A DNA stretch of 64,000 bases from Candidatus Gastranaerophilales bacterium (GTDB taxonomy: Bacteria > Cyanobacteriota > Vampirovibrionia > Gastranaerophilales > Gastranaerophilaceae). The translations under genes and the position numbers were made by a program. Below the pieces are notes generated by a model that was not told the DNA's origin, searched no databases, and saw nothing but the letters and a program-made list of their open reading frames with translations. This document shows positions 43,099 to 59,357 of this stretch, in pieces (the first letter of the stretch is position 1; each line of letters begins with the position of its first letter). The stretch is from contig CALVEL010000008.1 in the NCBI GenBank assembly GCA_944326565.1, forward strand, positions 2,003-66,002. Reading direction: 5' to 3'.

Positions 43099-43155
43099 AG
43101 ATAATATATTATACTATTTTATTAAAATGTCAATATTTAGATAATATATTATCTA
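43098..43155. promoter_or_regulatory. two palindromic operator-like boxes at the hipBA promoter
   Basis: Perfect 18-bp palindrome TAGATAATATATTATCTA at 43138-43155. A second copy, TAGATAATATATTATA, at 43098-43113 overlaps the hipB start codon. Spacing is 40 bp. Confidence 0.5.
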
Positions 43156-43272
43156 ATATTTTAAAAGCAAAAAATACAACATAATGAAGTTGTGTTGTAT
43201 TTTGAGGGTAAATATATGTGGGTAAGGGTGAATGAATTTTTGCAGGCGGAAGTATATTCTGAACATTGCTGA

Positions 43273-43330
43273 AATTTTTGAACATTTTTTGAACGCTGTT
43301 TAAATGTCGTTTAAACGGTGTTTAAATTTT
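43273..43330. repeat. left arm of the imperfect inverted repeat bracketing the recombinase-BREX segment
   Basis: 2x TTTTTGAAC followed by 3x TTTAAA at 11-12 bp phasing. 43273-43305 matches the reverse complement of 59325-59357 at 29 of 33 positions without gaps. Confidence 0.8.
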
Positions 43331-43396: not shown

Positions 43397-43936
43397 ATGA
43401 ATGTAGTACAACCTATAAAAAAGCTGGAAGATATTCAAAAGATTAAAAAATATTTGGTAAAAAAGACAAGAGATGCACTGCTTTTTAGTTTCGGTATAAA
43501 TACGGGACTCAGAATATCTGATATATTATCGCTTGATATTGGGGATGTAAAAGGCAGAGATTATATTGAAATTAGAGAGAAAAAGACAAATAAGTATAAG
43601 AAATTTCCGCTTAATAGGTTTTTAAAAGAGGAGATTAATTTATTTGTAGAGGGTTTGGCGAGTGAGCAACCGCTTTTTTATACACAAAAACATTGCAGGC
43701 TTGATAGAGCACAGGCGTATAGAATTTTGAATAAGGCAGCACAAGCTGTTGGGGTGAAGGAAAGAATCGGAACACATACACTGAGAAAGACATTCGGGTA
43801 TCATCATTATAAAAAATATAATGATATAGTACTCCTGCAAAAAATCTTTAACCACTCCTCACCATCAGTAACGCTTCGCTACATCGGCATCGAACAAGAC
43901 ACAATCGATGAAAGCTACATGAATTTTTATCTGTAG
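43397..43936 (+). CDS. small tyrosine recombinase (catalytic domain only, 179 aa)
   Basis: All catalytic residues are readable: GLRISD (Arg), KTNKYKKF (Lys), GTHTLRKT (HxxR), NHSSP (His), LRYIG (Tyr). The size resembles FimB/FimE-type invertases rather than phage integrases. Confidence 0.85.
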   Translation: MNVVQPIKKLEDIQKIKKYLVKKTRDALLFSFGINTGLRISDILSLDIGDVKGRDYIEIREKKTNKYKKFPLNRFLKEEINLFVEGLASEQPLFYTQKHCRLDRAQAYRILNKAAQAVGVKERIGTHTLRKTFGYHHYKKYNDIVLLQKIFNHSSPSVTLRYIGIEQDTIDESYMNFYL

Positions 43937-43969: not shown

Positions 43970-44380
43970 TTATTTATAGCTTCCGATTTTTCTGCCGTAT
44001 TTGTCGTATTCGGTAATTCTACCAGATGAGTCTTTTTTGAATGAACCTACTTTTTGACCGTATTTATTGTATTTTGTAGTTACCCCATTAGAATTTGTTT
44101 TGTAACTACCAGTTTTCTGTCCATACTTATCATAGGAATTATATCCAGAGGAAGTCTTTTTATAACTTCCAGTTTTTTGACCGTACTTGTCATATTTATT
44201 ATAGCCAGAGGAAGTTTCCTTGTATGTGCCAGTTTTAGAACCATATCTGTCATAAGAATTGTAGCCTGAAGTTGTTTGCCTGTAAGAACCTGTCTTTTGA
44301 CCATACCTATCATAGGAAGTAACTGCAAAAGCAACATTTGCAAAGAATAACATCAACAATAAAACTAAAAATTTCTTCAT
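43970..44380 (-). CDS. secreted tandem-repeat protein (six ~20-aa YDKYGQKTGSYK units)
   Basis: Start at MKKFLVLLLMLFFANVAFA (44380) with an AAAGGAG RBS. Repeats are SYDRYGQKTGSYRQTTSGYN / SYDRYGSKTGTYKETSSGYN / KYDKYGQKTGSYKKTSSGYN, and so on. Confidence 0.7.
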   Translation of the reverse strand: MKKFLVLLLMLFFANVAFAVTSYDRYGQKTGSYRQTTSGYNSYDRYGSKTGTYKETSSGYNKYDKYGQKTGSYKKTSSGYNSYDKYGQKTGSYKTNSNGVTTKYNKYGQKVGSFKKDSSGRITEYDKYGRKIGSYK

Positions 44381-44431
44381 ACACAACTCCTTTATAATCA
44401 TAACGAAATAAGGCTGAAAATTGTTCAAATA

Positions 44432-44760: not shown

Positions 44761-45381
44761 ATGGTTAAACGAGATGTTTGTAATTCTGTTTCTAAAGAAT
44801 ATAGTGCTAGGATGACTGGAAATCAATTTCTTTATCCAGAGTTTAAGGTTGCAGTTAAATTACTACAAGAAGGCTTAAGCAAAAAAGAAGCAACCGATAA
44901 AATTATTAATGAGAATTTATTTGAATATCGTTCTTTTAAGGCTATAAACAAACATATTGGTGCTGTATGGGAAAGAGCAAACTATTTAGATGACTATTTG
45001 ATTGAAGTGCTATTAACTGAACCTAATGAAATAGGAAGACTTATTAATTTTTATGCAATTTTAAAATATGACAGATTATTTCTTGAATTTATGGAAGAAG
45101 TCTTAATAGATAAAGTGTTTTCAAGACAAATGGAAGTTTCTAAATCTGATATATCCAACTATTTTTCGATTAAAGCAGAACAGAGTGAAACTGTGGCTAA
45201 CTTTAAAGAAACAACATTAAAAAGGCTTAGATTAGCGTATTTTGAGATTCTAAGTGGAGCTGGATATATAGGAACAAATAGAGATAATGCAGAATTAACA
45301 ATCCCTCTTGGTATATACCAGATTACTAATCATTTAGAAGAAATTGGTGATAAAAGGTATGCAAAAGCAATGTTAGGATAA
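44761..45381 (+). CDS. brxA: BREX protein BrxA (DUF1819)
   Basis: YSARMTGNQFLYPEFKVAVKLLQEGLSKKEATDKIINENLFEYRS fits the recalled DUF1819 pattern. It is the first gene of the six-gene BREX order. Confidence 0.85.
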   Translation: MVKRDVCNSVSKEYSARMTGNQFLYPEFKVAVKLLQEGLSKKEATDKIINENLFEYRSFKAINKHIGAVWERANYLDDYLIEVLLTEPNEIGRLINFYAILKYDRLFLEFMEEVLIDKVFSRQMEVSKSDISNYFSIKAEQSETVANFKETTLKRLRLAYFEILSGAGYIGTNRDNAELTIPLGIYQITNHLEEIGDKRYAKAMLG

Positions 45382-45384
45382 GTA

Positions 45385-45984
45385 ATGGAACTTAGAGCAA
45401 GACTGGATAAAATTAAAGCAATAATTGAACAGGATTCTTTTTTCAATCAACAATCGTTGGGTGGAGAGTTAAATTTTCATATCTTTGATTATGAACCTTC
45501 AGATGAACTAATTGTAAGAAGATATATCAAGGATTTTGTAAGCAGTTATTCTTATGCCAATTCAAAGATTAAACCTATAGAATTTGATTTATTTGAGATG
45601 TTATTAAAAATCCTAACTGATAAAACTGCTGGTAGTAAAACTTATCTTGATTTAGCAATAGAAACTGAAGAAAGACAAGGAACAGAAAGTCTTATTAATA
45701 CTCTTAGAGGGGTTATTAATATAGAAGAATTTGTAAATATGATAAAAAAAGAGCTAGGAGATAGTAATCTTGTTATTTTATCTGGTGTAGGAAAGGTGTA
45801 TCCTTTGGTAAGGTCGCATAATGTCTTAAATAATCTTCATGCAGTTTTAGATAAGATTCCAGTTATTATGTTCTATCCTGGTACATACGACCAAAAAGAA
45901 TTAAGGCTATTTAAAGGTTCAAACTTTGATGGCTTAAAAGATGATAATTATTACAGAGCATTTAGGCTTGTTGCAAATGAGTAA
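45385..45984 (+). CDS. brxB: BREX protein BrxB (DUF1788)
   Basis: 199 aa with FHIFDYEPSDELIVRRYI, as recalled for DUF1788. Lies between brxA and brxC with a 3-nt gap. Confidence 0.85.
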   Translation: MELRARLDKIKAIIEQDSFFNQQSLGGELNFHIFDYEPSDELIVRRYIKDFVSSYSYANSKIKPIEFDLFEMLLKILTDKTAGSKTYLDLAIETEERQGTESLINTLRGVINIEEFVNMIKKELGDSNLVILSGVGKVYPLVRSHNVLNNLHAVLDKIPVIMFYPGTYDQKELRLFKGSNFDGLKDDNYYRAFRLVANE

Positions 45985-45994
45985 AGGTGTAGTT

Positions 45995-48900
45995 ATGAAG
46001 CTAAGAGAATTATTTGAGAAAGATATTAATAGGAACATTAATGGTGTTGTTAAAGTTGAGCAAGTTGATGACGAAGCTATTATTTATCAAGAATTGGACG
46101 AATTTGTCGTTACAAAAGAACTTTCTAAGCATTTTAGCACTTTTTATAGTAATTATAAAAACTCATTTGAAGAAAGAACTGATAAAATCGGAGTATGGAT
46201 TTCTGGTTTCTTTGGTTCTGGTAAATCTCATTTTTTAAAGATGCTATCATATCTACTTGCCAACAAAGAAGTAAAAGGTAAAAAAACAATAGAATTCTTT
46301 GAAGGGAAATCTAATATAGATGATTGGACTTTTGCTGATATGAAATTAGCTACATCTGTTCCTACAGAAACTATTTTGTTCAACATTGATTCTAAAAGTT
46401 CAAAAGATACAAAACAAAGAAAAGATGGCATTGTTGAAGTCTTTTTAAAGGTCTTTAACGAATCTCAGGGTTACTCTGCAAACTACCCTAAACTTGCAGA
46501 TATTGAAAGATATCTTGATAAAAATGGAAAATACGAAGAATTTAAACAAATTATAACCTCAGAAAGTGGTGTATCTTGGGAAGAAGCATCTAATGCAGTT
46601 GGTTTCTTTAAAGACTTCTTTATAAAGGCTTATGTTCAAGTTACAGGGACAACAGAACAAAGTACACAAGACTTATTTAAAGATGTTGTTGAAGATTCAG
46701 GGATTACACCAGAAGGGTTTGCAAAGCTAATAAAAGAATATCTTGAAAGTAAAGGTAGTAAGAATCGAATTATTTTCTTGGTCGATGAAATTGGGCAATT
46801 TATAAGCGATAATACAAACCTTATGCTTAGTTTACAGACAGTTGTTGAAAACTTGGGTACTACGTGTAATGGAAGAGCTTGGGTAATGGTAACATCTCAA
46901 GAAGCAATAGATTCTATAACAAAAGAACGTTTCAGGGACCAAGATTTCTCAAAAATCCAAGGCAGATTTGATACAAAATTAAGTTTATCTGGTTCAAACA
47001 CTGATGAAGTTATCAAACGAAGATTATTAGAAAAGAAACCAGATGCAAGAACTCTTCTTTCTAATTATTACAACGAACAAGAAAAGATTTTGGCAAATCT
47101 AATCACCTTTTCCAGTCAAACTTCCGGCATGAAAATGTATGAAAATTCGGGCGATTTTGTTGATTGTTATCCATTTGTCCCATATCAATTCAAGTTGTTA
47201 CAAAGTGTGTTTACAGAGTTAAGAAACTTTTCTCATGCCGGGGCTCACTTAGCTTCAGGGGAGCGTTCTATGCTTAATGCATTCCACACAGCGTTAAAAG
47301 AGTATGGGGACAAAGAGATTACAGAATTAGTTCCATTCAATGTTTTTTATTCTACGATTCAAACCTTTATAGATACAGATATTGTCAGAATAATTGCACA
47401 AGCAAAAGAGGGTAATCCAGATATAGAAGATTTTGATATTGAAGTCTTAACTGTTTTATTCTTGATTAAATACATTAAAGAAGTTCCTTGTGATGTAGAA
47501 AATATTGCAACATTAATGATATCAAATATTAATGAAAGCAAAAATGCACTAAAATCCAAAATAGAAGGAGCTTTAACAAGATTAAAACAAGCTACATTAA
47601 TACAACAAAATGGAGAAGAATATTCATTCTTAACAAACGAAGAACAAGATGTTACAAGAGGTATAAAAAACACTCAGATTGATTCTAGCGATGTGTTAAA
47701 TGAAGTCTATAGAAATATATATGAAGAAATTTATACTAAAAAGTCAATAACTCCATATCCTCAAGGACAGTCTTATTATTTTGTAAGAAAAGTTGATGAT
47801 GTAGTAAGAGGAAGCCAAGCAGAAGATATAGAAGTTAAATTTATCACTTCTATGAACTCTGATTATAAATTCAGCGAATCTGAGCTAAAAATGAAGTTTC
47901 TTGCAGGAAATACATTATTTATCAAATTGAATGAAAACGGTTACCTACAAGAACTTGAAACTATCTTAAAAACAGATAAGTATATCAAGCAAAAAAGCAG
48001 TGTAAAACAGTCTGAAATGCAGGATATGATATTAAAAAACAGAGGTGCTGAATTAATAGAACGCAAGAAAAGGGTGAAAACTTTATTAGAACAAGCTATT
48101 CTTGAATCTACTTTCTACACAAACGGTCAGATTATGGAAGTTAGTGCAACAAGTGCTGCTGCAAAGATTGAAAATGCTTTGAAACAAATTGTAGAAAATA
48201 CATATACGAACCTTCATTTTATCCAAGAAAGAGTTAGGGATGAAAAAGAAATCCATGCAAAACTCATTGCTCCTCAAGGTAAATTGGATGAAAGAAACAA
48301 AAAAGCTCTTGATGATGTTTTAGCATTTATTCAACTAAATAACTCGATGAGTTGCACTGTTACAATGCAGGGATTAAAACAACAATATACAAGAAAACCT
48401 TTTGGTTGGTCTATAAATGATATTGCAGGTGTTGTAGCAGATTTAGCTGTTAAAGGAGACATTTCTATTCTCTATAATGGTGTTCAATGCAATTATCAGG
48501 ATTATAATACAGTAAAATATTTGACAAATGACAGAGAAATTCAAAGCACTGTAATCAAATTGAAAGAAAAAATAGATAGTGCAAAAATCCAGCAAGTAAT
48601 AGCAATAGCACAAGAACTATTTGAAAAACAAGACTTTGTAGATGATGGAGAAAAACTTGCAAATTCAATAAGAGAAAATCTTCAAAATATGATTGGAGAT
48701 TTACAAGAGCTTAATGGAAGACATAATAACCCCAAATATCCTAAAAAGACTGTTATTGAACTTGGTCTTTCTACATTAAAAGAGCTTAAGAATGAGCCAG
48801 ATGTAAACGGATTATTTGATTTATTGATAAAGCAAAAGGATAATTTATTAACTTGGAAACAAGAATATAAACTCCTAAAATCATTCTTTAATACTCAAGT

Positions 48901-49561
48901 TGGTATTTTTGATGAATCATTGAAAATATATGACAGAGTAAAAAGAAATGAAGTTTATTTAACAACTTTTGAATCAGAAGAGGTTGCTAAATTAAATGAA
49001 CTAATTTCTAAACTTGAATCGATAATAGATTCTCCTGAACCATATTCTATGATTAAAGCTCTTCCTGTCTTAAATTCGGATATAACTTCTATTGTTAATA
49101 ATGTATTAGAAGATTATAAACAGGCATTAGGAGAAGTTATAAGTGATTTAGCTCATTATTTAGCAGAAGAAGCATCCAAACAGGGGCTTGAATGTGAAAG
49201 ATATAGCAACTTATTCAAGATTAATGTTACTGATTTGTATGAAAGAGCAACTGATTTTGGAGTGTTAAAGGCTATTGAAGAAAAAGCAAAATTATATTAT
49301 GAAAAACTTTTGAAACAAATTTCAGAAGATAGCATTGCGAAAAAGAATTTAGAATTACAACAACTAACAGGTACAGAAGAACATCCAGACTCTGAACCAA
49401 TGATTCAGAAAGAATTAGTATTCGTAAATCCTACAAATGTTGTTCAGAGTATGCAAATTCTTGAAACGGAAGAAGATGTTGATAACTATATCAACAAACT
49501 ATCAGAAGAGTTGAAAAACAGAATCAGGAACAATAAACGTATTAAACTCCAAGGGGGCTAG
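45995..49561 (+). CDS. brxC: BREX P-loop ATPase BrxC
   Basis: N-terminus MKLRELFEKDINRNINGVVKVEQVDD...ELDEFVVTKEL and P-loop GFFGSGKSHFLKML. About 1190 aa. ATG at 45995 has an AAAGGTG RBS. Confidence 0.9.
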   Translation: MKLRELFEKDINRNINGVVKVEQVDDEAIIYQELDEFVVTKELSKHFSTFYSNYKNSFEERTDKIGVWISGFFGSGKSHFLKMLSYLLANKEVKGKKTIEFFEGKSNIDDWTFADMKLATSVPTETILFNIDSKSSKDTKQRKDGIVEVFLKVFNESQGYSANYPKLADIERYLDKNGKYEEFKQIITSESGVSWEEASNAVGFFKDFFIKAYVQVTGTTEQSTQDLFKDVVEDSGITPEGFAKLIKEYLESKGSKNRIIFLVDEIGQFISDNTNLMLSLQTVVENLGTTCNGRAWVMVTSQEAIDSITKERFRDQDFSKIQGRFDTKLSLSGSNTDEVIKRRLLEKKPDARTLLSNYYNEQEKILANLITFSSQTSGMKMYENSGDFVDCYPFVPYQFKLLQSVFTELRNFSHAGAHLASGERSMLNAFHTALKEYGDKEITELVPFNVFYSTIQTFIDTDIVRIIAQAKEGNPDIEDFDIEVLTVLFLIKYIKEVPCDVENIATLMISNINESKNALKSKIEGALTRLKQATLIQQNGEEYSFLTNEEQDVTRGIKNTQIDSSDVLNEVYRNIYEEIYTKKSITPYPQGQSYYFVRKVDDVVRGSQAEDIEVKFITSMNSDYKFSESELKMKFLAGNTLFIKLNENGYLQELETILKTDKYIKQKSSVKQSEMQDMILKNRGAELIERKKRVKTLLEQAILESTFYTNGQIMEVSATSAAAKIENALKQIVENTYTNLHFIQERVRDEKEIHAKLIAPQGKLDERNKKALDDVLAFIQLNNSMSCTVTMQGLKQQYTRKPFGWSINDIAGVVADLAVKGDISILYNGVQCNYQDYNTVKYLTNDREIQSTVIKLKEKIDSAKIQQVIAIAQELFEKQDFVDDGEKLANSIRENLQNMIGDLQELNGRHNNPKYPKKTVIELGLSTLKELKNEPDVNGLFDLLIKQKDNLLTWKQEYKLLKSFFNTQVGIFDESLKIYDRVKRNEVYLTTFESEEVAKLNELISKLESIIDSPEPYSMIKALPVLNSDITSIVNNVLEDYKQALGEVISDLAHYLAEEASKQGLECERYSNLFKINVTDLYERATDFGVLKAIEEKAKLYYEKLLKQISEDSIAKKNLELQQLTGTEEHPDSEPMIQKELVFVNPTNVVQSMQILETEEDVDNYINKLSEELKNRIRNNKRIKLQGG

Positions 49562-49649
49562 GGGTAAATGGTGTAAATAGGAGTAACCATTATAGAATAA
49601 ACTTAATCCCTAAAATATTGGAACTTTTCAAACTATAAAGGAAGTATTG

Positions 49650-52600
49650 ATGACAGAACTATTAGAAAAAGAAATAACATTGGATAAATCAGCACTAAAA
49701 GACTTTGCAATAAAAGCAAGAAGAAAACTTAAAGAAAGAGTTGAGCTTCAAGCAAAACTGATGGGATTTTATGAAGATAATAGAGCTGTCAATTATGAGT
49801 TTGAAGACGACAGACAAGTGAAAATAAATGGAGAGTTCTTTAGCAAAAAACAAGTTGAGACCTTACAAAGAGAAATTAAGTCAAAAGGTTATGAAAACTT
49901 GATTGATGAAGTTGCATATACTTGGTTCAACAGATTCATCGCTCTATATTATATGGAAGTCAATGGATATAGCGAAAATAATTTTAATATTATTTCAAAT
50001 ATCGATAACCTTAACCAATTTGCAGTATCTGTTTCATCACAATTGAATGATGAAGAAAAACAAACTGTTATATCAGCTGTTCAAAATAATAATCAGGATG
50101 TAATTTTTAAGACATTGCTAATTCATCAATGTAATGTGATGAACAAAAAACTTCCATTCTTGTTTGAGCAAATCCAAGACTATACAGAATTATTATTCCC
50201 TCAAGGGATGAATAGTGCTGATTCTGTAATAAAAGAAATGCTATCTCTTGATAAATCCAACTGGCAAGTTGTAGAAATTATCGGCTGGCTTTATCAGTAT
50301 TATATTTCAGAAGCAAAAGAAATACTTGATTATGAATTAAAAAATAAAAAAAATCGTAAAGTGCAAAAAGATGATATGCCAGCTAAAACTCAAATATTTA
50401 CTCCTAAATGGATAGTAAAATATATGGTTGAAAACTCAGTTGGTAAAATGTGGCTTGAAGCTCGTCCTAATAAAGAATTACAGTCTAAATTTAAGTACTA
50501 TTTGGAATCAGCTGATCAAGAAGATGATGTTAAAGAAAAACTAAAAGAAATTATAAATAAAAACATCTCTCCAGAGGATATAAAAGTTCTTGACCCTGCT
50601 TGTGGTTCTGGGCATATTTTGGTAACAGCTTTTGAAGTTTTATACCAAATATACAAATCTGCTGGATATATGAAAGATGAGATTGCTAAATTGATTCTGA
50701 CAAAAAATTTATATGGACTTGATATTTGTAATAGAGCTTCTCAATTAGCTCAACTTGCTTTAATTATGAAAGCTAGAGAATATGACAAAGATATTTCATC
50801 TAAGGTAGTTGAATTAAATATAACTTCTATTCAAGATACCAATTGGTTTGATTCAAGAGTAAAAGAATGCCTAATGAATGGTGTAACTAACCAATTACTT
50901 GCACAATCACAAATAGATTTATTGCAAAAAACATTCAAAGACGCTAAAGAATACGGTTCAATTCTTGATGTAAAAGATTTTGATTTCAATTTTTGGGAAG
51001 AAAGATTATATGCTGTGCAAACTCTAAATATGGGACTTTTATATTCTGATATTACAGAACAATTAAGAGACAAATTACCTCAATTAATCAAACAAGCTCG
51101 TATCATGCAACAAAAATATGAATGCGTTATTACAAATCCTCCGTATTTAGGTAGTAAATTCTTTGATGCAAAATTAACAGAATTCATGACAAAAAAATAT
51201 CCTAATTCAAAATCGGATACGTGTGTAGCATTTATAGAAAAGGCTTTGCAAATGACAGCTAAAAATTCATATTGTGCTCTAGTTGTTATGCAATCATGGA
51301 TGTTTTTATCATCATTTGAAAAGTTTAGAGAACACTTATTAAATAATTCGACAATTCAAACAATGACACATATGGGTAATAACGTCATGAAAATAGCTTT
51401 TGGCACATGTGCAACAGTATGGCAAAAAGCTGTAATGCCAAAATATAAAGCTGTATATTCATGGGTAGAAAACGATGATATTACTGAAAAAGATATTCCA
51501 TATACATTCCCTATTAAAGATAATGGGCGATATAACATAGTTGCTCAAAATGGATTCCACTCAATACCTGGGTCGCCGATTGCATACTGGGCTAGCGATA
51601 GAGTTAGAGAGATATTTAGAAATAACAAGCCTTTAAATGAATTTGTTGAAGCTTTTCAAGGAATTATAACAGGTGATAATAATTATTTTTTAAGATTATG
51701 GTATGAACTTGAAAATAATAAGATTTCATTTAATAAACAAAAAATGGAAGAAGTTAATATATCTGAACAATATTGGATTCCTTATAACAAAGGAGGCGAA
51801 TTTAGGAAATATTATGGTAATCAAGATTATGTCATAAATTGGAAAGATGAAGGTGATGGACTTGTTAGAAGCCGAAACAAATCTTCTGAATATTATTTGC
51901 AAGAATATGTTTCTTGGACATATATTACATCTACAACTCCCACAACAAGATATTATCCCAAAGGTTTTTTATGGGATGTAGCTGGTTCTGGTTTCTTTGA
52001 TAAAAATAAAAATAACAAGAATTTGTATTATTTACAAAGCTTATTGGGTTCAAACGTAGGAAGATATATTATTTATTTAATTAATCCAACAATAAATTTT
52101 CAAGTCGAAAATATATTATTATTTCCAACGAAATTTCCGAATAAAGAAATTCAAGATAAAATTAATTCATTAGTTGCAGAAAACATTCAAATATCAAAAG
52201 ACGATTGGGATAGTTTTGAAACATCTTGGGATTTTGAACAACATCCTTTGTTGAGATTCTCTAATAGAAATAAAGGTCTTGTTGACTACAAAAATATTCA
52301 TAAAGTTGAACCTATTACAGCAGGAGATAAAGTTCAAGATTGTTTCAATAAATGGAAGGAATACAAACAAGAACAATTCAACAAACTAAAAGCTAATGAA
52401 GAAGAATTGAACAGATTGTTTATTGAAATTTATGGACTTCAAGATGAAATGACTCCAGAGGTCGATGATAAAGATATTACAGTCGCTTTAGCAGATGAAT
52501 TAAGGGATATAAAATCACTTCTATCTTATGCTATTGGCTGTATGTTTGGCAGATATTCTCTTGATGAAAAAGGTTTAATATTTGCTGGTGGAGAGTTTGA

Positions 52601-53207
52601 CAAAAGTAAATATCAAACCTTAGAAGTTGATGAAGATGGTATTTTACCAATTCTTTCTGATACTTGGTTTGATGATGATATTATAGAAGAGTTCAAAAGG
52701 TTCTTGAAAAAAGCATTTGGCGAATTATATTTCAATGAGAATATGCAATATATAGCAGATGTTTTAGGTCGCAAAGGTTCTGAGAGTGCAGAAGATAGAA
52801 TTAGAACATATTTCTTGAAAGATTTCTACAAAGACCATTTGCAAATCTACAAAAAACGTCCTATTTATTGGATGTTTACAAGCGGCAAAGAAAAAGGGTT
52901 CAACGCTCTAATATATCTGCACAGGTATGACAAAACAACATTATCAAGAATAAGAAAAGATTATTTGCACGAGTTCCAAAACAAATTGGATAATGCAATA
53001 CAAAGAGCAGAAAACGAAGGAAATGTTAAATTAACATCACTATATTCAAAATATCAAACAGAATGCCTTGAATTTGATAGAAAGATTAAGGATTTAGCTG
53101 ATGAGCAGATAGAGCTAGACCTTGATGACGGTGTAAAAGTTAATTATGCAAAATTCAAAGGACTGCTCGAATCAGAAAAAGATGTAATAGGAAAGGATAA
53201 AGGCTAA
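49650..53207 (+). CDS. pglX: BREX N6-adenine DNA methyltransferase PglX
   Basis: SAM-binding motif I VLDPACGSGHIL and catalytic motif IV VITNPPYLGSK. About 1185 aa, in the correct position after brxC. Confidence 0.9.
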   Translation: MTELLEKEITLDKSALKDFAIKARRKLKERVELQAKLMGFYEDNRAVNYEFEDDRQVKINGEFFSKKQVETLQREIKSKGYENLIDEVAYTWFNRFIALYYMEVNGYSENNFNIISNIDNLNQFAVSVSSQLNDEEKQTVISAVQNNNQDVIFKTLLIHQCNVMNKKLPFLFEQIQDYTELLFPQGMNSADSVIKEMLSLDKSNWQVVEIIGWLYQYYISEAKEILDYELKNKKNRKVQKDDMPAKTQIFTPKWIVKYMVENSVGKMWLEARPNKELQSKFKYYLESADQEDDVKEKLKEIINKNISPEDIKVLDPACGSGHILVTAFEVLYQIYKSAGYMKDEIAKLILTKNLYGLDICNRASQLAQLALIMKAREYDKDISSKVVELNITSIQDTNWFDSRVKECLMNGVTNQLLAQSQIDLLQKTFKDAKEYGSILDVKDFDFNFWEERLYAVQTLNMGLLYSDITEQLRDKLPQLIKQARIMQQKYECVITNPPYLGSKFFDAKLTEFMTKKYPNSKSDTCVAFIEKALQMTAKNSYCALVVMQSWMFLSSFEKFREHLLNNSTIQTMTHMGNNVMKIAFGTCATVWQKAVMPKYKAVYSWVENDDITEKDIPYTFPIKDNGRYNIVAQNGFHSIPGSPIAYWASDRVREIFRNNKPLNEFVEAFQGIITGDNNYFLRLWYELENNKISFNKQKMEEVNISEQYWIPYNKGGEFRKYYGNQDYVINWKDEGDGLVRSRNKSSEYYLQEYVSWTYITSTTPTTRYYPKGFLWDVAGSGFFDKNKNNKNLYYLQSLLGSNVGRYIIYLINPTINFQVENILLFPTKFPNKEIQDKINSLVAENIQISKDDWDSFETSWDFEQHPLLRFSNRNKGLVDYKNIHKVEPITAGDKVQDCFNKWKEYKQEQFNKLKANEEELNRLFIEIYGLQDEMTPEVDDKDITVALADELRDIKSLLSYAIGCMFGRYSLDEKGLIFAGGEFDKSKYQTLEVDEDGILPILSDTWFDDDIIEEFKRFLKKAFGELYFNENMQYIADVLGRKGSESAEDRIRTYFLKDFYKDHLQIYKKRPIYWMFTSGKEKGFNALIYLHRYDKTTLSRIRKDYLHEFQNKLDNAIQRAENEGNVKLTSLYSKYQTECLEFDRKIKDLADEQIELDLDDGVKVNYAKFKGLLESEKDVIGKDKG

Positions 53208-53213
53208 AGATTT

Positions 53214-53714
53214 ATGCCAAATTCAGAACGAGAAACTATAGAAAATTTAATAAGAGTGCTAAATTGTAATGAAACCGTTACGGTCTTTAAGAGAAAACGT
53301 TCATTTATATTTAATTTTGCTATGATTTGGAATCTTTTTGAAGATAGATGTATGGATAATTTTGCCCAAATTTCTAAGGTTGATGATTTTGTTAATACTT
53401 TGCCTTCCGATTTAAATCTGGATGTAAATATAATTTTTGATTATTTCAAAGATAGGTATAAAGTAGTTAATAATATATACAATATAGAAAACTTATTATG
53501 GAGACGTAATGAAAATACTTACAGAAATTTTGTAATAGAAAAATTCAGAGATACTCAATGCTCTCATCAAGATAAAATAAAAGCTGTTTTATATATTATT
53601 TTTAGACTAAGAAATAATCTTTTTCATGGGGAAAAAGATATTGCAATAATAAATGAACAAAAACGAACTTTTGTTCTTGTGAACAAATTTTTGATGGATT
53701 TAATTACTTTATAG
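53214..53714 (+). CDS. HEPN-type (Rx4H) small protein inserted between pglX and pglZ
   Basis: 166 aa, starting 6 nt after the pglX stop and ending 11 nt before pglZ. C-terminal helix LYIIFRLRNNLFHGEKD contains R133-x4-H138 in the RNxxxHG context typical of HEPN RNase/Abi families. Confidence 0.6.
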   Translation: MPNSERETIENLIRVLNCNETVTVFKRKRSFIFNFAMIWNLFEDRCMDNFAQISKVDDFVNTLPSDLNLDVNIIFDYFKDRYKVVNNIYNIENLLWRRNENTYRNFVIEKFRDTQCSHQDKIKAVLYIIFRLRNNLFHGEKDIAIINEQKRTFVLVNKFLMDLITL

Positions 53715-53725
53715 GTAAATAGATA

Positions 53726-56236
53726 ATGGAACAAGATAAATTACAAGAATTAATATTGAAACATTTTAACAAGCAAGAAAGACAAATTGTATTCTGGTAT
53801 GATGAAACTGGAGAAAATGAAGAAAAACTGGATTCATTATCTCTTCCTAATATTAAAATACACAAGCTCACAAAGAATAATAATCTTTTGACAAAAAAGT
53901 TGCTTGAAAAAGATGATACGACATCAAATTATCTTATTTATGCACCTTTTGAGATGCCTCCTATTGAAGATAACTGGTTTATTGATACACAACTATATTC
54001 ACAAGTTCTATCTGTTGATGAGGTGGATAGTTTATGCTCCGAATTTGAAGTCTATGATATAGCAATTAAAAACCTGTTCAAAAACCATATCAAATTCTTT
54101 AATAACAAAAAAAGAATAAATAATTTCAAAACTCTGTTGCCATCTAATAAATCAGTAGAAAATTTCTACTTAGCAATGTTTGGAACGCTTGTCGAGTGTA
54201 AAATATTTGATAAATACAAAATTATTCAAACATTTATTATAAAAGAAATTATTGATAAAAATACTCCATCAAAGGAATTTGCAAAGTATGGATTGGAAGA
54301 TAAGTTTTGGGAATTAATAGAAAAAGAATTTGGCTACTTGGGAGAACGAGAAGCAAAATATCTATTAGCAGGAATTGTCTTTAAAAAACTGCAACAACAA
54401 CTCAGAGGTTCAAGTTTCCCTGATACTTATAAAAAATATATTAGTAAGAATATGAAAGAAGCTGAATGCAATTCATTCTTAGAAAGTTGGTTTCGTGATA
54501 CAGAGCTTATGCCTTATTATAAAGAATTGATAGAAGAGTTTGAAAGAGATGATTTTAAAATAGATGAGAATATTACAGACTGGTCTGATATATTACAAAG
54601 CGAACCTGAATTCCAAACTCTTAGAGCATATGATAGATTCCTTGTTAATTATTTGATTGCTCAATTTGATTCGTTAAAAGATGAAGATAAAATACTTATT
54701 GAAAAAAGAAAAAGAACACTATTCTATAATGAGTATGAAAATGTTTATAATGCTCTTTTCTGGGCTTTGGAATTAAGTTTGTTAGTGAAAAACACTCAGA
54801 TTCCAGAACAGAAAATTGAAACATTTATTAAGAGCTATGCTCAAAGTTATTACAAAATAGATAAAGCATATAGAAAATTCTATTACTATTGTGGATTATT
54901 AAACGATAGAAAACTTGACTCTGTTAAAGATAAAGTTGAGAAATTGTATGTAAACAAATATCTTGATGATATTAATTTGAAATTCTCTAACCAAGTAAAA
55001 GAAATTGCCCCTAACTGGACTTTTTCAAATCTTCCTATGCAAAAAGATTTCTATTACAATGAAGTACGTTCTTCTAAAAACAAACTTGTTGTTATAATTT
55101 CTGATGCATTACGATATGAAATTGCAGAAGAATTAAGCGAGGCAATTAGAAGTAACTACTCAATTAAAGCCGATGTAAAACTGGATTGTATGGTCGCTTC
55201 AATCCCTTCTTATACAAGATTAGGGATGGCTTCATTGCTTCCTCATAAAGAAGTTTCTATGAATAATAAAGCTGAAATTGTTGTAGATGGAGTAGTTGCA
55301 AAGGATTCTGCATCAAGAGAAAAAATATTGCAAGCACATAATCCAAACTCAAAAGTTCTGATTTTAAGTGATTTAGAAGATATGTCAAGAGATGATTTAA
55401 GAGCTCTATTTAGTGGATTAGAGATTGCTTATATTTATCATGATGACATTGATAAAGCTGGAGAACATAATGAAAAAGATGTGTTTAATGCTGCTGAAAA
55501 AACTGTAAAAATACTTTCAGAAAAAATTAAGTTTTTGTTCAATAATTCTTTGTGTAGCAATGTAATTATTACCGCAGACCACGGTTTCTTATATCAATAT
55601 AGCGATTTAGAAGAGCATCAAAAGATTACAATAGGCACTATTGATTCTATTGAGTGTAAAAAAAGGTATATTATTGGAACTTCTCCAGTAGAAAAGCAGG
55701 GTATCGTTGATTTTGATATGAATTATATATTCAAAAATTCAGCTTTAAAATTGTCGTTGCCATGCAATATCAATAGATTTAAAACTTCTGGAGCTGGCAT
55801 AAATTACGTTCATGGAGGAGCTAGTCCTCAAGAAATAGTATTACCTCTTTTGAGAGTTAAGCAAAACCGTAAACAAGAAATTAAGAAAGTAAAACTTTCA
55901 CTAGAAAACTCTTCTCGAAAGATTACTAATAATAAGTTTACATTATCATTCTTGCAAAAAGAAAGCATATCTGAGCTTGTTAAACCAAGAGTATTCAGCG
56001 TTTCTTTATGGGATGAAGAAAATAATATGCAAGTATCTAATAAACTTATTATAGATGCAAATATTAGTTCTGATAAAATGGAAGATAGAATATTCAAAAA
56101 AGTATTAGAACTAAAAAGTTTTGATGCAGATAAAAACAAAGATTATTACTTGATTATAAAAGATGTAGATGAGGTTGGTGAACCATATGCAAAAATCCCA
56201 TTTACAATAAATTTAATGTTCCAGTCAGATTTTTAA
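53726..56236 (+). CDS. pglZ: BREX alkaline-phosphatase-superfamily protein PglZ
   Basis: VVIISDALRYEIAEEL and VIITADHGFLY motifs of the PglZ domain. 836 aa. Confidence 0.9.
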   Translation: MEQDKLQELILKHFNKQERQIVFWYDETGENEEKLDSLSLPNIKIHKLTKNNNLLTKKLLEKDDTTSNYLIYAPFEMPPIEDNWFIDTQLYSQVLSVDEVDSLCSEFEVYDIAIKNLFKNHIKFFNNKKRINNFKTLLPSNKSVENFYLAMFGTLVECKIFDKYKIIQTFIIKEIIDKNTPSKEFAKYGLEDKFWELIEKEFGYLGEREAKYLLAGIVFKKLQQQLRGSSFPDTYKKYISKNMKEAECNSFLESWFRDTELMPYYKELIEEFERDDFKIDENITDWSDILQSEPEFQTLRAYDRFLVNYLIAQFDSLKDEDKILIEKRKRTLFYNEYENVYNALFWALELSLLVKNTQIPEQKIETFIKSYAQSYYKIDKAYRKFYYYCGLLNDRKLDSVKDKVEKLYVNKYLDDINLKFSNQVKEIAPNWTFSNLPMQKDFYYNEVRSSKNKLVVIISDALRYEIAEELSEAIRSNYSIKADVKLDCMVASIPSYTRLGMASLLPHKEVSMNNKAEIVVDGVVAKDSASREKILQAHNPNSKVLILSDLEDMSRDDLRALFSGLEIAYIYHDDIDKAGEHNEKDVFNAAEKTVKILSEKIKFLFNNSLCSNVIITADHGFLYQYSDLEEHQKITIGTIDSIECKKRYIIGTSPVEKQGIVDFDMNYIFKNSALKLSLPCNINRFKTSGAGINYVHGGASPQEIVLPLLRVKQNRKQEIKKVKLSLENSSRKITNNKFTLSFLQKESISELVKPRVFSVSLWDEENNMQVSNKLIIDANISSDKMEDRIFKKVLELKSFDADKNKDYYLIIKDVDEVGEPYAKIPFTINLMFQSDF

Positions 56237-56248
56237 GGCAGGTGAAAA

Positions 56249-58297
56249 ATGAACAATTTAGATAAGAAAATTACAGAAACATTTGAAGGTTGTGTTGTAA
56301 GGAAAGACTTAGTAAAAGAAGTTAAAGGGAATGCTATTGTTCCTTCATACGTCTTAGAATATTTACTTGGACAATATTGTGCATCAAGTGATGAAGATGT
56401 AATTAAATCAGGAATTGAATCAGTAAAAGAAATTCTAGCAAAACACTATGTTAATAGAAACGAAGCAGAATATATTAAATCTACTATTAAAGAAAAAGGA
56501 CGCTACAAAGTAATTGATAAGGTAAGTGTTCAATTTAATGAAAAAACAGATTCTTATATTGCTACATTTTCAAATCTAGGAATAACAGGGATTAATGTCC
56601 CATCTGAAATAGCTTATAAAAAGTATCCAAGATTATTGGTTTCAGGAATTTGGTGTCTAGCAGACCTTGAATATCAATATACTGAAGATAAAAAGGCTTG
56701 CCCTTGGTTGTTGCAGAACATCAAGCCTATTCAGCTTGCACAGTTTGATTTTGAAGATTTTAAAGCTAAAAGAGCAATGTTTTCTACTGATGAATGGATT
56801 GATTTACTTATGCAAAGCATAGGTTTTAATCCAGAAATGCTAAGCAGAAGAAAGAAATTATTACAGCTTGTTAGACTTATTCCATACTGTGAAAGAAATT
56901 ATAATTTTATAGAACTTGGACCTAAAGGAACTGGTAAGAGTCACATATACACAGAATTTTCACCTCATGGAACTTTGATTTCTGGGGGCGAAGTTTCTGC
57001 TGCAAAATTATTTGTGAATAATTCAAGAAAACATGATATTGGTTTAGTTGGGTACTGGGATAATATTGCATTTGATGAGTTTGCAGGTAGCTCAAAGAAA
57101 GTTGATAAAGCTCTTGTTGATATAATGAAAGGTTATATGGCTAACAAGTCATTCTCTAGAGGCGTTGAAACACTAACGGCAGAAGCATCAATGACATTTA
57201 TTGGTAATACAAAGCACAATGTTCCTTATATGTTAAAACATTCTAATTTGTTTGAAGAATTACCTCCTCAATATTTAGATTCAGCATTTCTTGATAGAAT
57301 TCATTTCTATTTACCGGGATGGGAAGTTGATGTTACAAGACCAGAATTATTTACTACAAACTACGGTTTTGTTGTGGATTATTATTCAGAAGCTTTAAAA
57401 TGTCTAAGAAATTATGATTTTTCTAATGAATACAAGAAAGAATTTACTCTAGGAAATATTTCAGAACGTGATAGAACAGGTGTTATGAAGACATTCTCAG
57501 GGCTTATGAAGATTATTTATCCTGATAAAAAAGCTTCAACTGAAGAATTAGAAGAATTACTTAAATTTGCAATGGAAGGAAGAAAAAGGGTTAAAGACCA
57601 GATTTTAAGAATAGACTCGACTCTTCCACAAGTAGATTTTTCATATACAAGTAATTCTGGAGTCGAAGTTAAAGTAAAAACAACTGAAGAAATTCAATAT
57701 AAAGGATTATATAATGGAGAAATGGAAGACTCCGAAGACGAAGTTATGATAAGTTCTCCAGAAGTTGTTGAAGTAATAAATGATAGTTCTAAAGAAACTG
57801 CAACTAATGAAGAAGAAATTAAAGAACATCATTTTGTAATTGAAGAAAATCAAATTGGGGTTACGTTTGAAAAGCTGTTTGGAAGATTATTTAAAGGGGT
57901 AAAAAATATTGTTATTACTGACCCTTATATAAGAAATTTCTACCAAACTGTAAACTTAATGGAATTATTAGAAGTTGTAGATAAAGCGAAATCTGAAACA
58001 GATATTGTTACTGTTGAATTAATAACTTCTGCTGATGAATTTAATGAACAAATACAGCGTGAAAACTTAAATACCATAAGAGAATCTTGCTTACAAATGG
58101 GTATTGAATTTAGTTATCAATTCGATTCAAGTATTCATGCAAGAAGTATTGTTACTGATACTGGATGGAAAGTTTTATTAGATAGAGGACTTGATATATT
58201 CCAAAATTGTGAAAGAAAAGATGCATTTCAATTCACAACAAGATTACAAAAGTACAGACCTTGTAAAAAATTTGAGATAACATATTTGAGAACATAA
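56249..58297 (+). CDS. brxL: BrxL-type ATPase with a non-canonical C-terminal MIT_C/PLD-like domain
   Basis: The N-terminus FEGCVVRKDLVKEVKGNAIVPSYVLEYLLGQYCASSDEDVIKSG and P-loop LGPKGTGKSHIY match recalled BrxL. After an acidic linker, residues ~531-682 resemble the MITD1 C-terminal domain. I see no Lon S16-type GPSAG region. Confidence 0.8.
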   Translation: MNNLDKKITETFEGCVVRKDLVKEVKGNAIVPSYVLEYLLGQYCASSDEDVIKSGIESVKEILAKHYVNRNEAEYIKSTIKEKGRYKVIDKVSVQFNEKTDSYIATFSNLGITGINVPSEIAYKKYPRLLVSGIWCLADLEYQYTEDKKACPWLLQNIKPIQLAQFDFEDFKAKRAMFSTDEWIDLLMQSIGFNPEMLSRRKKLLQLVRLIPYCERNYNFIELGPKGTGKSHIYTEFSPHGTLISGGEVSAAKLFVNNSRKHDIGLVGYWDNIAFDEFAGSSKKVDKALVDIMKGYMANKSFSRGVETLTAEASMTFIGNTKHNVPYMLKHSNLFEELPPQYLDSAFLDRIHFYLPGWEVDVTRPELFTTNYGFVVDYYSEALKCLRNYDFSNEYKKEFTLGNISERDRTGVMKTFSGLMKIIYPDKKASTEELEELLKFAMEGRKRVKDQILRIDSTLPQVDFSYTSNSGVEVKVKTTEEIQYKGLYNGEMEDSEDEVMISSPEVVEVINDSSKETATNEEEIKEHHFVIEENQIGVTFEKLFGRLFKGVKNIVITDPYIRNFYQTVNLMELLEVVDKAKSETDIVTVELITSADEFNEQIQRENLNTIRESCLQMGIEFSYQFDSSIHARSIVTDTGWKVLLDRGLDIFQNCERKDAFQFTTRLQKYRPCKKFEITYLRT

Positions 58298-58303
58298 ATA
58301 TTT

Positions 58304-58984
58304 ATGGATACAAAAGAAGCATCAAAAAAATTTCAGAATGGGAATTGGCAAGATAACGCTATTTTGTCTAATGGATATTATAGTTGGGATATGATGGCGG
58401 ACGGTTATTTTAATGCTGCTAATATCTTAGTGGGAAGTACAATTTGCCCTGAGTTTATCAATGAGAAATATTTGTGTTGTAAAAATAAAGAAATTGGAGA
58501 ACCTTTATTTTCAACATGTAAAAACACCTTTATTTTTCCCATATTTTTCTTATATAGACATTATATTGAATTATCAATAAAAAAAGCTTACATAAGAATC
58601 AAGAAATGTAAGCTTGAAAATTCTAAAATTAAAGCTGAACATTCTCTAAGAATTTTGTTTAAAAATTTAAAAGACAATTATATGAATATGTATAATAGCA
58701 ATACGTATCAAATGTATAAAAATTTAGAATTTAAACAATTACGACGTAAGTTTCAGGAAATAGAACAGATTATACTTGAGTTCGATGCTATAGATAGTAC
58801 ATCTTTTAATTTTAGATATCCTATAGATAATAATGGTTGTCTTATCTTTAACAACAATGAAATAATTAATATAGAGAATCTAGCCGAAAAGATGCAGAAA
58901 ATTAGAGTTTTCTTTCAATACCTAGATATTGCTTTAGATGAAATTGAAGAAGTAAAAAATATTATACTAGATTATATTGAATAA
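58304..58984 (+). CDS. HEPN-like helical protein coupled to the end of the BREX operon
   Basis: Starts 6 nt after the brxL stop. FFLYRHYIELSIKKAYI...AEHSLRILFKNL...SFNFRYPID follows the classical HEPN layout (xxxxE..lK ... H.L..L ... RYP) as I recall it. There is no His 4-6 residues after the Arg. Confidence 0.45.
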   Translation: MDTKEASKKFQNGNWQDNAILSNGYYSWDMMADGYFNAANILVGSTICPEFINEKYLCCKNKEIGEPLFSTCKNTFIFPIFFLYRHYIELSIKKAYIRIKKCKLENSKIKAEHSLRILFKNLKDNYMNMYNSNTYQMYKNLEFKQLRRKFQEIEQIILEFDAIDSTSFNFRYPIDNNGCLIFNNNEIINIENLAEKMQKIRVFFQYLDIALDEIEEVKNIILDYIE

Positions 58985-59083
58985 ACAGATAAATTATTTA
59001 AATATAGTTAATAATATATTATATCTAAACTTGATGTTATCTAACTTTTGAGTGATGAATACGACACCTTAAAAGGAGGTCGT

Positions 59084-59308: not shown

Positions 59309-59357
59309 ATGGTATTTAATTCCTGTTTAAATACCGTTCAAAAAGTGTTCAAAAATT
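59301..59357. repeat. right arm of the imperfect inverted repeat bracketing the recombinase-BREX segment
   Basis: In reverse complement it reads AATTTTTGAACACTTTTTGAACGGTATTTAAACAGGAATTAAATACCATTTAAAAAT. Box order and phasing are the same as in the left arm, while the spacers between the TTAAA boxes have diverged. Confidence 0.8.

Follow-up and report, generated by a model that had tools for sequence, protein, structure and literature searches.

The window analysed here is a 64,000-nucleotide stretch of contig CALVEL010000008.1 (assembly GCA_944326565.1) from a Gastranaerophilales gut bacterium, and it carries a complete type 1 bacteriophage exclusion (BREX) operon, brxA-brxB-brxC-pglX-pglZ-brxL, on a single strand, within which lies an additional open reading frame (ORF) encoding 166 amino acids that we refer to as ORF166. 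ORF166 (53214..53714, + strand, ATG start) begins 6 nt after the end of pglX (49647..53207, +), which encodes the methyltransferase and specificity subunit (PADLOC PglX, E = 0; Pfam Eco57I, N6_Mtase and MmeI_Mtase), and ends 11 nt before the start of pglZ (53726..56236, +; Pfam PglZ, 4e-44; PADLOC PglZ, 3e-228). The remaining core genes, brxA (44761..45381, +), brxB (45385..45984, +), brxC (45941..49561, +) and brxL (56249..58297, +), were recognized likewise by Pfam and PADLOC (brxL also by NCBIfam TIGR02688), and the six genes as a set match models of Pfam, PADLOC and NCBIfam at E values from 1e-37 to 0. An earlier note, made from the letters of the sequence, had described precisely this arrangement, with a small ORF wedged into an otherwise canonical operon and bearing R133-NNLF-H138 in its translation, and on each of these points it was correct. 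The same note held that the gene must be co-transcribed with its neighbors. No terminator-like site was found in 52600..54200, promoter-like hexamers in that interval occur at the frequency expected by chance, and an Rfam scan around ORF166 returned nothing; the most economical view is therefore that ORF166, on the same strand and across such short gaps, is transcribed together with pglX and pglZ.

No model in Pfam (2025), NCBIfam (2026) or PADLOC 2.0 matches ORF166, and its only match in PHROGs is phrog_27260 (E = 2.4e-11), for which no function is known. Its relatives are numerous. A search of a 5.8-billion-protein set identified 41 homologs, none with a Pfam domain, and a profile search of 1.84 billion representatives at 50% identity recovered 1,371 clusters at E ≤ 1e-3, of which 753 also passed E ≤ 1e-10; almost without exception these are stand-alone proteins of 155-180 residues. 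A word-indexed search with a 141-sequence profile gave 1,600 clusters at 90% identity, every one labeled 'hypothetical protein' and lacking a Pfam domain. When longer family members were checked for fusions no recurrent fused domain was found, and N-terminal extensions resemble mis-called starts, with a single exception described below. The closest genomic relatives come from metagenome-assembled genomes of Candidatus Gastranaerophilales from the human gut. More widely, family genes occur at 298 places in species-representative genomes of Pseudomonadota, Bacteroidota, Desulfobacterota, Planctomycetota and other phyla, as well as on 41 viral contigs of IMG/VR and 10 plasmids (RefSeq name again hypothetical); a tblastn search of INPHARED phage genomes gave no match. 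AT-rich genomes such as this one (28% G+C in the window) do yield long spurious ORFs, and ORF166 at 24.6% G+C falls below the BREX genes, which could suggest a chance ORF or a decaying pseudogene in an AT-rich spacer. Such an origin is barely credible, and is already refuted by conservation, given 1,371 clusters across phyla, invariant residues, a confidently predicted fold, and a ratio of non-synonymous to synonymous substitution rates (dN/dS) below 1.

An alignment of 141 diverse family sequences shows E43, R133 and H138 to be invariant, with at least 90% conservation of F35, W39, F42, R81, Y82, I128, R131, N134 (92%), N135, G139, K141, Q149 and F153. The pattern RxRx4H is retained in 146 of 148 representatives. 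Both R133 and H138 are borne on the peptide IFRLRNNLFHGEKD, and the fuller family motif, RxRNNxxHGxK, reads R131-L-R133-N-N-L-F-H138-G-E-K141 in ORF166 (53604..53636, +), where it ends helix 118-137 and opens the next loop. The codon for E43, the invariant acidic residue of a WNxFE motif at the C-terminal end of helix 30-46, lies at 53340..53342 (+). Between these two elements is a variable middle region (residues 47-117; 53352..53564, +) of four short helices and a hairpin that nonetheless holds the conserved pair R81-Y82. The earlier note had allowed that its proposal would fail if homologs were never found in defense contexts and the R/H pair were not conserved among them; the pair is invariant in a very large family, and the contexts, as described below, are overwhelmingly those of defense, for example within BREX and type I restriction-modification (RM) operons and beside AbiO/Nhi.

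Sister BREX loci, in which PglZ is 95-99% identical to that of the window (98-99% in L097-L101), show that the interval between pglX and pglZ is a slot of variable content. ORF166 stands alone in the window and in one other locus (L016). In five others (L012, L014, L015, L017, L018) it is preceded, at a distance of 21 nt, by a gene for a 252-residue membrane protein (TM252) with N-terminal transmembrane helices, which is truncated in a sixth (L013). One locus (L019) carries a 340-residue in-frame fusion of an unrelated 174-residue N-terminal domain to the ORF166 domain, which is the exception noted above. Four loci (L098-L101) carry only a TM252-like paralog of 36-37% identity, and one (L097) carries a different, 108-residue ORF. 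The alternative cargo lies at L012:9221-9979, at about L098:5260-5998, at about L097:5670-5996 and at L019:9479-10000; neither TM252 nor the 174-residue domain of L019 has a Pfam match, and TM252 has no PADLOC match either. ORF166 is thus absent from L097-L101, and no BREX model matches it.

Across these same loci BrxA, BrxB, BrxC, PglZ and BrxL are for the most part 95-100% identical, whereas PglX reaches only 63-86% (68-86% between sister loci with the other BREX proteins at 95-100%). This divergence of PglX beside a variable slot, amid a nearly uniform core, marks the region from pglX to the slot as a recombination hotspot, and suggests that the PglX allele is swapped together with the adjacent cargo. 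Measured against sister loci, ORF166 has a dN/dS of 0.26-0.53 (0.03-0.08 for pglZ), with residues 1-29 and 47-117 strongly divergent at synonymous and non-synonymous sites alike and residues 30-46 and 118-166 near-identical even at synonymous sites. Positive selection on the variable region was considered and rejected, because every region shows a similar dN/dS (0.35-0.55) and the conserved segments have a low dS as well; the regional pattern points to mosaic recombination. ORF166 is not a BREX component but interchangeable cargo of a pglX-pglZ insertion hotspot, with the traits of an embedded accessory gene: nesting on the same strand, variable presence, and non-embedded homologs in other defense islands.

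The recurrence of TM252 21 nt upstream of ORF166, together with the fusion of a 174-residue domain in L019, raises the question of whether ORF166 is the toxin of a two-gene pair with its TM252 neighbor, in which case the copy in the window would be an orphan remnant. We think this very unlikely. ORF166 stands by itself, with frame and motif intact, in the window and in L016; the TM252-like gene stands by itself in L098-L101; and outside this clade TM252 is never the neighbor. TM252 and ORF166 assort independently, and TM252 was rejected as an obligate partner.

We surveyed the context of more distant relatives in 80 genomic loci, with a deliberately limited seed search for defense genes (77 loci, 10 kb). 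The earlier note had asked how often homologs sit between pglX and pglZ, and the answer depends on distance: every homolog at least 75% identical does so, in the same BREX clade as the window, but about 90% of the examined family loci are outside BREX. A recognizable defense gene lies within 10 kb in at least 35 of the 77 loci. Relatives are found between pglX and pglZ in two Flavobacterium loci (L026, L046) and in Hydromonas, directly past pglX on a short contig from an uncultured bacterium, and between homologs of BrxC and PglX in Desulfomicrobium. About eight lie within or next to type I RM genes, and between 7 and 10 are located 3 nt past a T5orf172/GIY-YIG gene that is itself downstream of a Lit-like U49 peptidase. 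Others adjoin genes for OLD/SMC-type ABC ATPases, HamA, Schlafen, RhuM or radical-SAM proteins. PADLOC matches among immediate neighbors include mad3 (6), PDC-S57 (6), LmuB (5), Ppl (4), AriA (4), PglX (3) and HEC-05 (2), as well as type I RM subunits. No partner gene is conserved across contexts, which argues that the ORF166 domain is autonomous or works with interchangeable partners.

Two of these contexts are worth describing in their own right. Homologs of 45-49% identity occur 43 nt upstream of a gene for a 494-residue AbiO/Nhi-like superfamily 1 helicase (PADLOC AbiO, 7e-155; Nhi, 2e-151), at prophage ends and in defense islands, near type I RM genes with Abi_C, GmrSD and AAA_15/21 ATPases. 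The family genes linked to AbiO/Nhi in L001-L004, L008-L011 and L020 are on gut metagenome contigs labeled Alphaproteobacteria, some of them placed where the structural module of a prophage ends. As Nhi and AbiO are each described as a system of one gene, the conserved family gene upstream of the helicase may be an overlooked partner. The second context is a recurrent proteobacterial cassette (L029, L033, L038, L041, L051, L052, L060, L063, L071, and L103 on an Agrobacterium vitis plasmid) consisting of a ~477-residue unknown or TrlF-like ATPase, a ~307-residue Lit-like Peptidase_U49, a 167-residue T5orf172/GIY-YIG protein with a zinc finger and, 3 nt downstream of the latter gene, the ORF166-family member. 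This cassette may be a multi-gene defense system of its own. The 'TrlF' annotation of the plasmid neighbor was pursued as a lead and discarded, since it points to a Photorhabdus temperature-restriction locus (PHP-ATPase plus Schlafen) that is unrelated to the family.

These contexts bear on the proposal in the earlier note that ORF166 is an arm of BREX or a BREX-controlled effector. In its most explicit form, and in the style of PrrC with EcoprrI, contact with BREX (for example with PglX or PglZ) would keep ORF166 inactive until a phage anti-BREX factor, such as an Ocr-like DNA mimic or a SAM lyase, disabled BREX and released ORF166 as an RNase. The embedding of the gene on the same strand with gaps of 6 and 11 nt is what would be expected of such a guard, and the family has repeatedly come to lie inside RM-like operons: about eight of type I RM, and BREX or BREX-like ones in five independent lineages. 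The literature discusses both the PrrC paradigm and the sensing of anti-restriction by embedded systems, and HEPN back-up effectors have been proposed for BREX (PMC12839542). However, most family members are found outside any RM-like system, with partners that vary (Nhi helicase, GIY-YIG, ABC ATPases, resolvase) or are lacking altogether, and in sister loci ORF166 is missing or replaced while PglZ, BrxL and BrxC remain 95-100% identical. A general need for specific protein-protein contact with BREX is therefore unlikely, and we regard BREX control of ORF166 as improbable; the proposal in the earlier note is weakened by the sister loci without the gene or with other cargo, and by the many family members elsewhere.

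Whether ORF166 is a HEPN protein, as the earlier note proposed from its motif, was examined by structure prediction and residue coevolution. Two AlphaFold monomer models were made (pLDDT 86 and 94), the second of which, from 141 sequences, is an all-alpha protein (pTM 0.88) with nine helices at residues 3-15, 22-28, 30-46, 53-61, 71-81, 90-94, 98-112, 118-137 and 143-165. In HEPN domains the Rx4-6H motif straddles the junction between core helix 3 and the loop that leads into helix 4, the arginine is usually followed by N, D or H, and a conserved upstream acidic residue lies nearby (PMC3710099), typically in helix 2 and often as Ex3[KR]. The motif of ORF166 has this spacing, with the polar N134 directly after R133, and it has the expected location: according to DSSP assignments of the model, R133-N134 terminate the penultimate helix (118-137) and H138 begins the loop (138-142) that leads to the last one (143-165). 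Mean-field direct coupling analysis (DCA) of 401 family sequences (Neff 294) likewise recovered the antiparallel hairpin 118-137/143-165. It also placed helix 30-46 antiparallel to the last helix, so that the E43/D44 end meets the motif loop (pairs D44-N134, N40-D142 and N49-E140), and it coupled R81 with both G139 and K141. E43, R81/Y82 and the residues of RxRNNxxHGxK are thus predicted to meet at one end of the helical bundle.

Several observations weigh against assigning this pocket to a HEPN domain. E43 is not in an Ex3[KR] context but at the C-terminal end of a helix that DCA orients parallel to the motif helix, the two being separated by about 70 residues, which makes its equivalence to the helix-2 residue of HEPN domains uncertain; the canonical up-down-up-down core fits only if helix 30-46 is taken as the first and 98-112 as the second, with an insert between. 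There was no significant HEPN match to ORF166 in Pfam, NCBIfam or PADLOC, nor in Pfam to the 141 relatives and three consensus sequences. Sequence-profile searches of the PDB with shallow, deep and motif-only alignments returned only noise. Abi_C (PF14355) did not match ORF166 in Pfam, and hhalign against it gave a probability of 0.15%, although with an Abi_C alignment that was shallow, having been built from a neighboring gene in L008 and its homologs at 54% identity or above. Foldseek searches with both models against the PDB, and with the first against BFVD, gave best E values of about 1-2 and template modeling scores near 0.2; Csm6' appeared only at rank 32 (E = 7.3, pLDDT-94 model) and no HEPN structure was found. 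Finally, no neutralizing partner is conserved across contexts, and a minimal stand-alone HEPN without MNT or antitoxin would be unusual. In short, no recognizable similarity of the predicted structure to the four-helix up-down bundle of solved HEPN structures was found.

Some of these negatives are of limited sensitivity. HEPN families are hard to detect without HHpred, for which probabilities of 75-98% are typical (PMC3710099). Sub-threshold Pfam hits of family members include RiboL-PSP (0.0043), SWT1_3rd (0.015) and Apea (0.15, twice), and the presence of three HEPN families among some 87 noise families exceeds chance expectation, but the motif by itself probably accounts for these hits, and their number did not rise when the scan was extended from 56 to 141 relatives. 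For its part, Foldseek is weak on small helical bundles. The HEPN claim of the earlier note therefore stands in part: motif, helix-end position and the succession of N and then HG agree with it, while neither profile nor fold provides a significant match. That note would have abandoned the claim had there been no HEPN-clan hit and a fold of another kind, and the negative profile and Foldseek searches go half of that way. The label 'HEPN RNase' as applied to ORF166 rests on a conserved motif and is not demonstrated by a fold match.

With these points in view, the explanation we favor, at a probability of roughly 55%, is that ORF166 is an accessory, co-expressed, second-line effector of abortive infection with a HEPN-type or HEPN-like RNase site. 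We hypothesize that E43, R81-Y82 and RxRNNxxHGxK form the pocket of a metal-independent ribonuclease in which H138 would serve as the general base or general acid, the scissile phosphate would be held by R133 and N134, and E43 would play a supporting part. ORF166 would remain inactive in uninfected cells and, once infection was sensed, would cleave RNA (tRNA, rRNA or mRNA), halting translation and aborting phage growth. The fast-diverging N-terminus and middle region may serve as its regulatory or sensing part. Gene position and orientation, family size, motif invariance, defense-island context and presence/absence polymorphism are observed directly, while RNase chemistry, toxicity, trigger and HEPN homology are inferred.

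The same evidence could be read without any HEPN domain, and possibly without any nuclease: ORF166 might have an all-alpha fold of a new kind, with a pocket for binding or modifying a signaling molecule, a nucleotide or the end of a nucleic acid, making it a sensor, regulator, adaptor or unrelated enzyme of use in many defense islands. A confident model (pLDDT 94, pTM 0.88) that has no structural neighbor in the PDB, and a first model with none in BFVD, would fit this, as would the lack of a profile match to any HEPN family, a conserved cluster (R81, Y82, R131, K141, Q149) richer in basic and polar residues than the HEPN minimum, a helix topology that by DCA is not plainly canonical, and the want of a conserved antitoxin. 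Yet an RN-x3-HG at the end of the penultimate helix together with an upstream acidic residue is a HEPN hallmark (PMC3710099), and the enrichment of sub-threshold hits for HEPN families, like the notorious difficulty of detecting such families without HHpred, also counts the other way, so that we consider a non-HEPN identity unlikely. A related and somewhat less doubtful, if still speculative, suggestion is that the family represents either a highly divergent, undescribed HEPN branch or a convergent non-HEPN enzyme, and in either case a new stand-alone immune effector or sensor shared by many systems. Were this so, one and the same E / R-Y / RxRNNxxHGxK pocket would serve BREX, type I RM, Nhi/AbiO, OLD-type ABC ATPases and GIY-YIG/Lit-like modules, and, there being no cognate antitoxin, the mechanism of its control would be new as well.

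The favored interpretation of ORF166 as a back-up effector has clear precedents. Stand-alone HEPN endoRNases of the families pEK499_p136 and RloC are embedded in Pgl/BREX operons (Anantharaman et al. 2013, PMC3710099), and stand-alone HEPN, PIN and Schlafen RNases, along with BrxL-HKD variants, have been described in BREX as 'backup suicidal effectors' (Nucleic Acids Research 2026, PMC12839542). Like the embedded HEPNs, ORF166 is a small stand-alone Rx4-6H protein encoded sporadically and on the same strand inside BREX, and the role proposed for them, that of second-line abortive RNases, is the one proposed here. Unlike them, it matches no Pfam HEPN family, those named in the two papers included, and has no structural match. 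A search of the supplement of the 2026 survey found no Gastranaerophilales entry.

Genes that lie inside BREX, DISARM, type I RM and Hma systems are usually independent defenses (Payne et al. 2024, 10.1101/2024.01.29.577857), among them HEC-08, a DUF3644 HEPN with zinc ribbons in which an H-to-A change in Rx4-6H abolishes defense (10.1101/2024.01.29.577857). ORF166 resembles HEC-08 in its embedding in an RM-like defense system and in its Rx4-6H histidine, but HEC-08 matches a Pfam HEPN family and the SO_3166 structure and ORF166 matches neither; the PADLOC HEC and PDC models likewise gave no match to ORF166. PrrC of the EcoprrI type Ic RM system, the paradigm of a latent effector set free by anti-restriction, is also a HEPN-type RNase encoded within an RM operon, and members of the ORF166 family are nested in type I RM operons too. 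PrrC, however, includes an ABC ATPase at its N-terminus and is embedded almost exclusively in RM systems, whereas ORF166 is a single 166-residue domain and most of its relatives are not embedded. As for HEPN-MNT type II/VII toxin-antitoxin systems, ORF166 is near the minimal HEPN size (~130-170 residues) and has an RNxxxH motif, but no MNT or conserved antitoxin gene is adjacent in the contexts examined (nucleotidyltransferase is not among the 25 commonest Pfam families of 87 immediate neighbors, and the neighbors in the window are pglX and pglZ), and according to the model the family has a ~70-residue insertion and an extra N-terminal helix.

The slot itself has also been used elsewhere. StySA of Salmonella LT2 has a two-gene insertion, ATPase plus DUF4435, in the same position between pglX and pglZ, and BrxU/GmrSD of pEFER is an independent defense function added to BREX. 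Both Flavobacterium loci combine a GmrSD/HEC-05 gene with an ORF166 relative in this slot. These cargoes differ from ORF166 in kind, BrxU being a DNA-modification-dependent HNH nuclease and the LT2 pair an OLD-ABC plus Toprim.

A back-up RNase embedded in Pgl/BREX was thus already published in 2013 and 2026, and an embedded HEPN also in 2024, so that ORF166 is an instance of a known phenomenon. The family itself, very widespread and with neither a database model nor a structural neighbor, appears to be new. If it does encode a functional nuclease effector, it would add to the catalog of anti-phage genes one that is compact, widely spread and so far unannotated, and would improve the annotation of defense islands. 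Since ORF166 is dispensable for the BREX core, it has no bearing on how BREX restricts phage. The Gastranaerophilales BREX clade nevertheless constitutes a natural experiment, with near-identical cores and at least five different slot contents, that could be used to test the effects of cargo.

Other features of the window accompany the operon. BrxL is a variant in which a C-terminal MIT_C (PLD/HKD-like) domain (E = 1.4e-40) follows the BrxL N-terminal and ATPase domains (Pfam BrxL_N and BrxL_ATPase) in place of the Lon-protease-like C-terminus; a BrxL-HKD variant of this type has been described (PMC12839542). Located 6 nt past brxL is a second unannotated accessory gene, ORF226 (58304..58984, +; 226 residues), which is present at 97-100% identity in the same position in L012, L016, L017, L019 and L097-L101, and whose sole family match is a sub-threshold one to the PF05168 HEPN family (Pfam, E = 0.15). 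A 32-nt inverted repeat, 91% complementary (43273-43304 / 59326-59357), with another pair at 43141-43166 / 58997-59022, encloses a gene for a 179-residue tyrosine recombinase (43397..43936), the BREX operon, ORF226 and an 86-residue ORF, and these repeats may delimit an island that is mobile or invertible. A 152-residue ORF on the minus strand (43970-44428), lying between the recombinase gene and brxA, has a hydrophobic N-terminus and tandem repeats of the type 'YD(R/K)YGQKTGSYK'.

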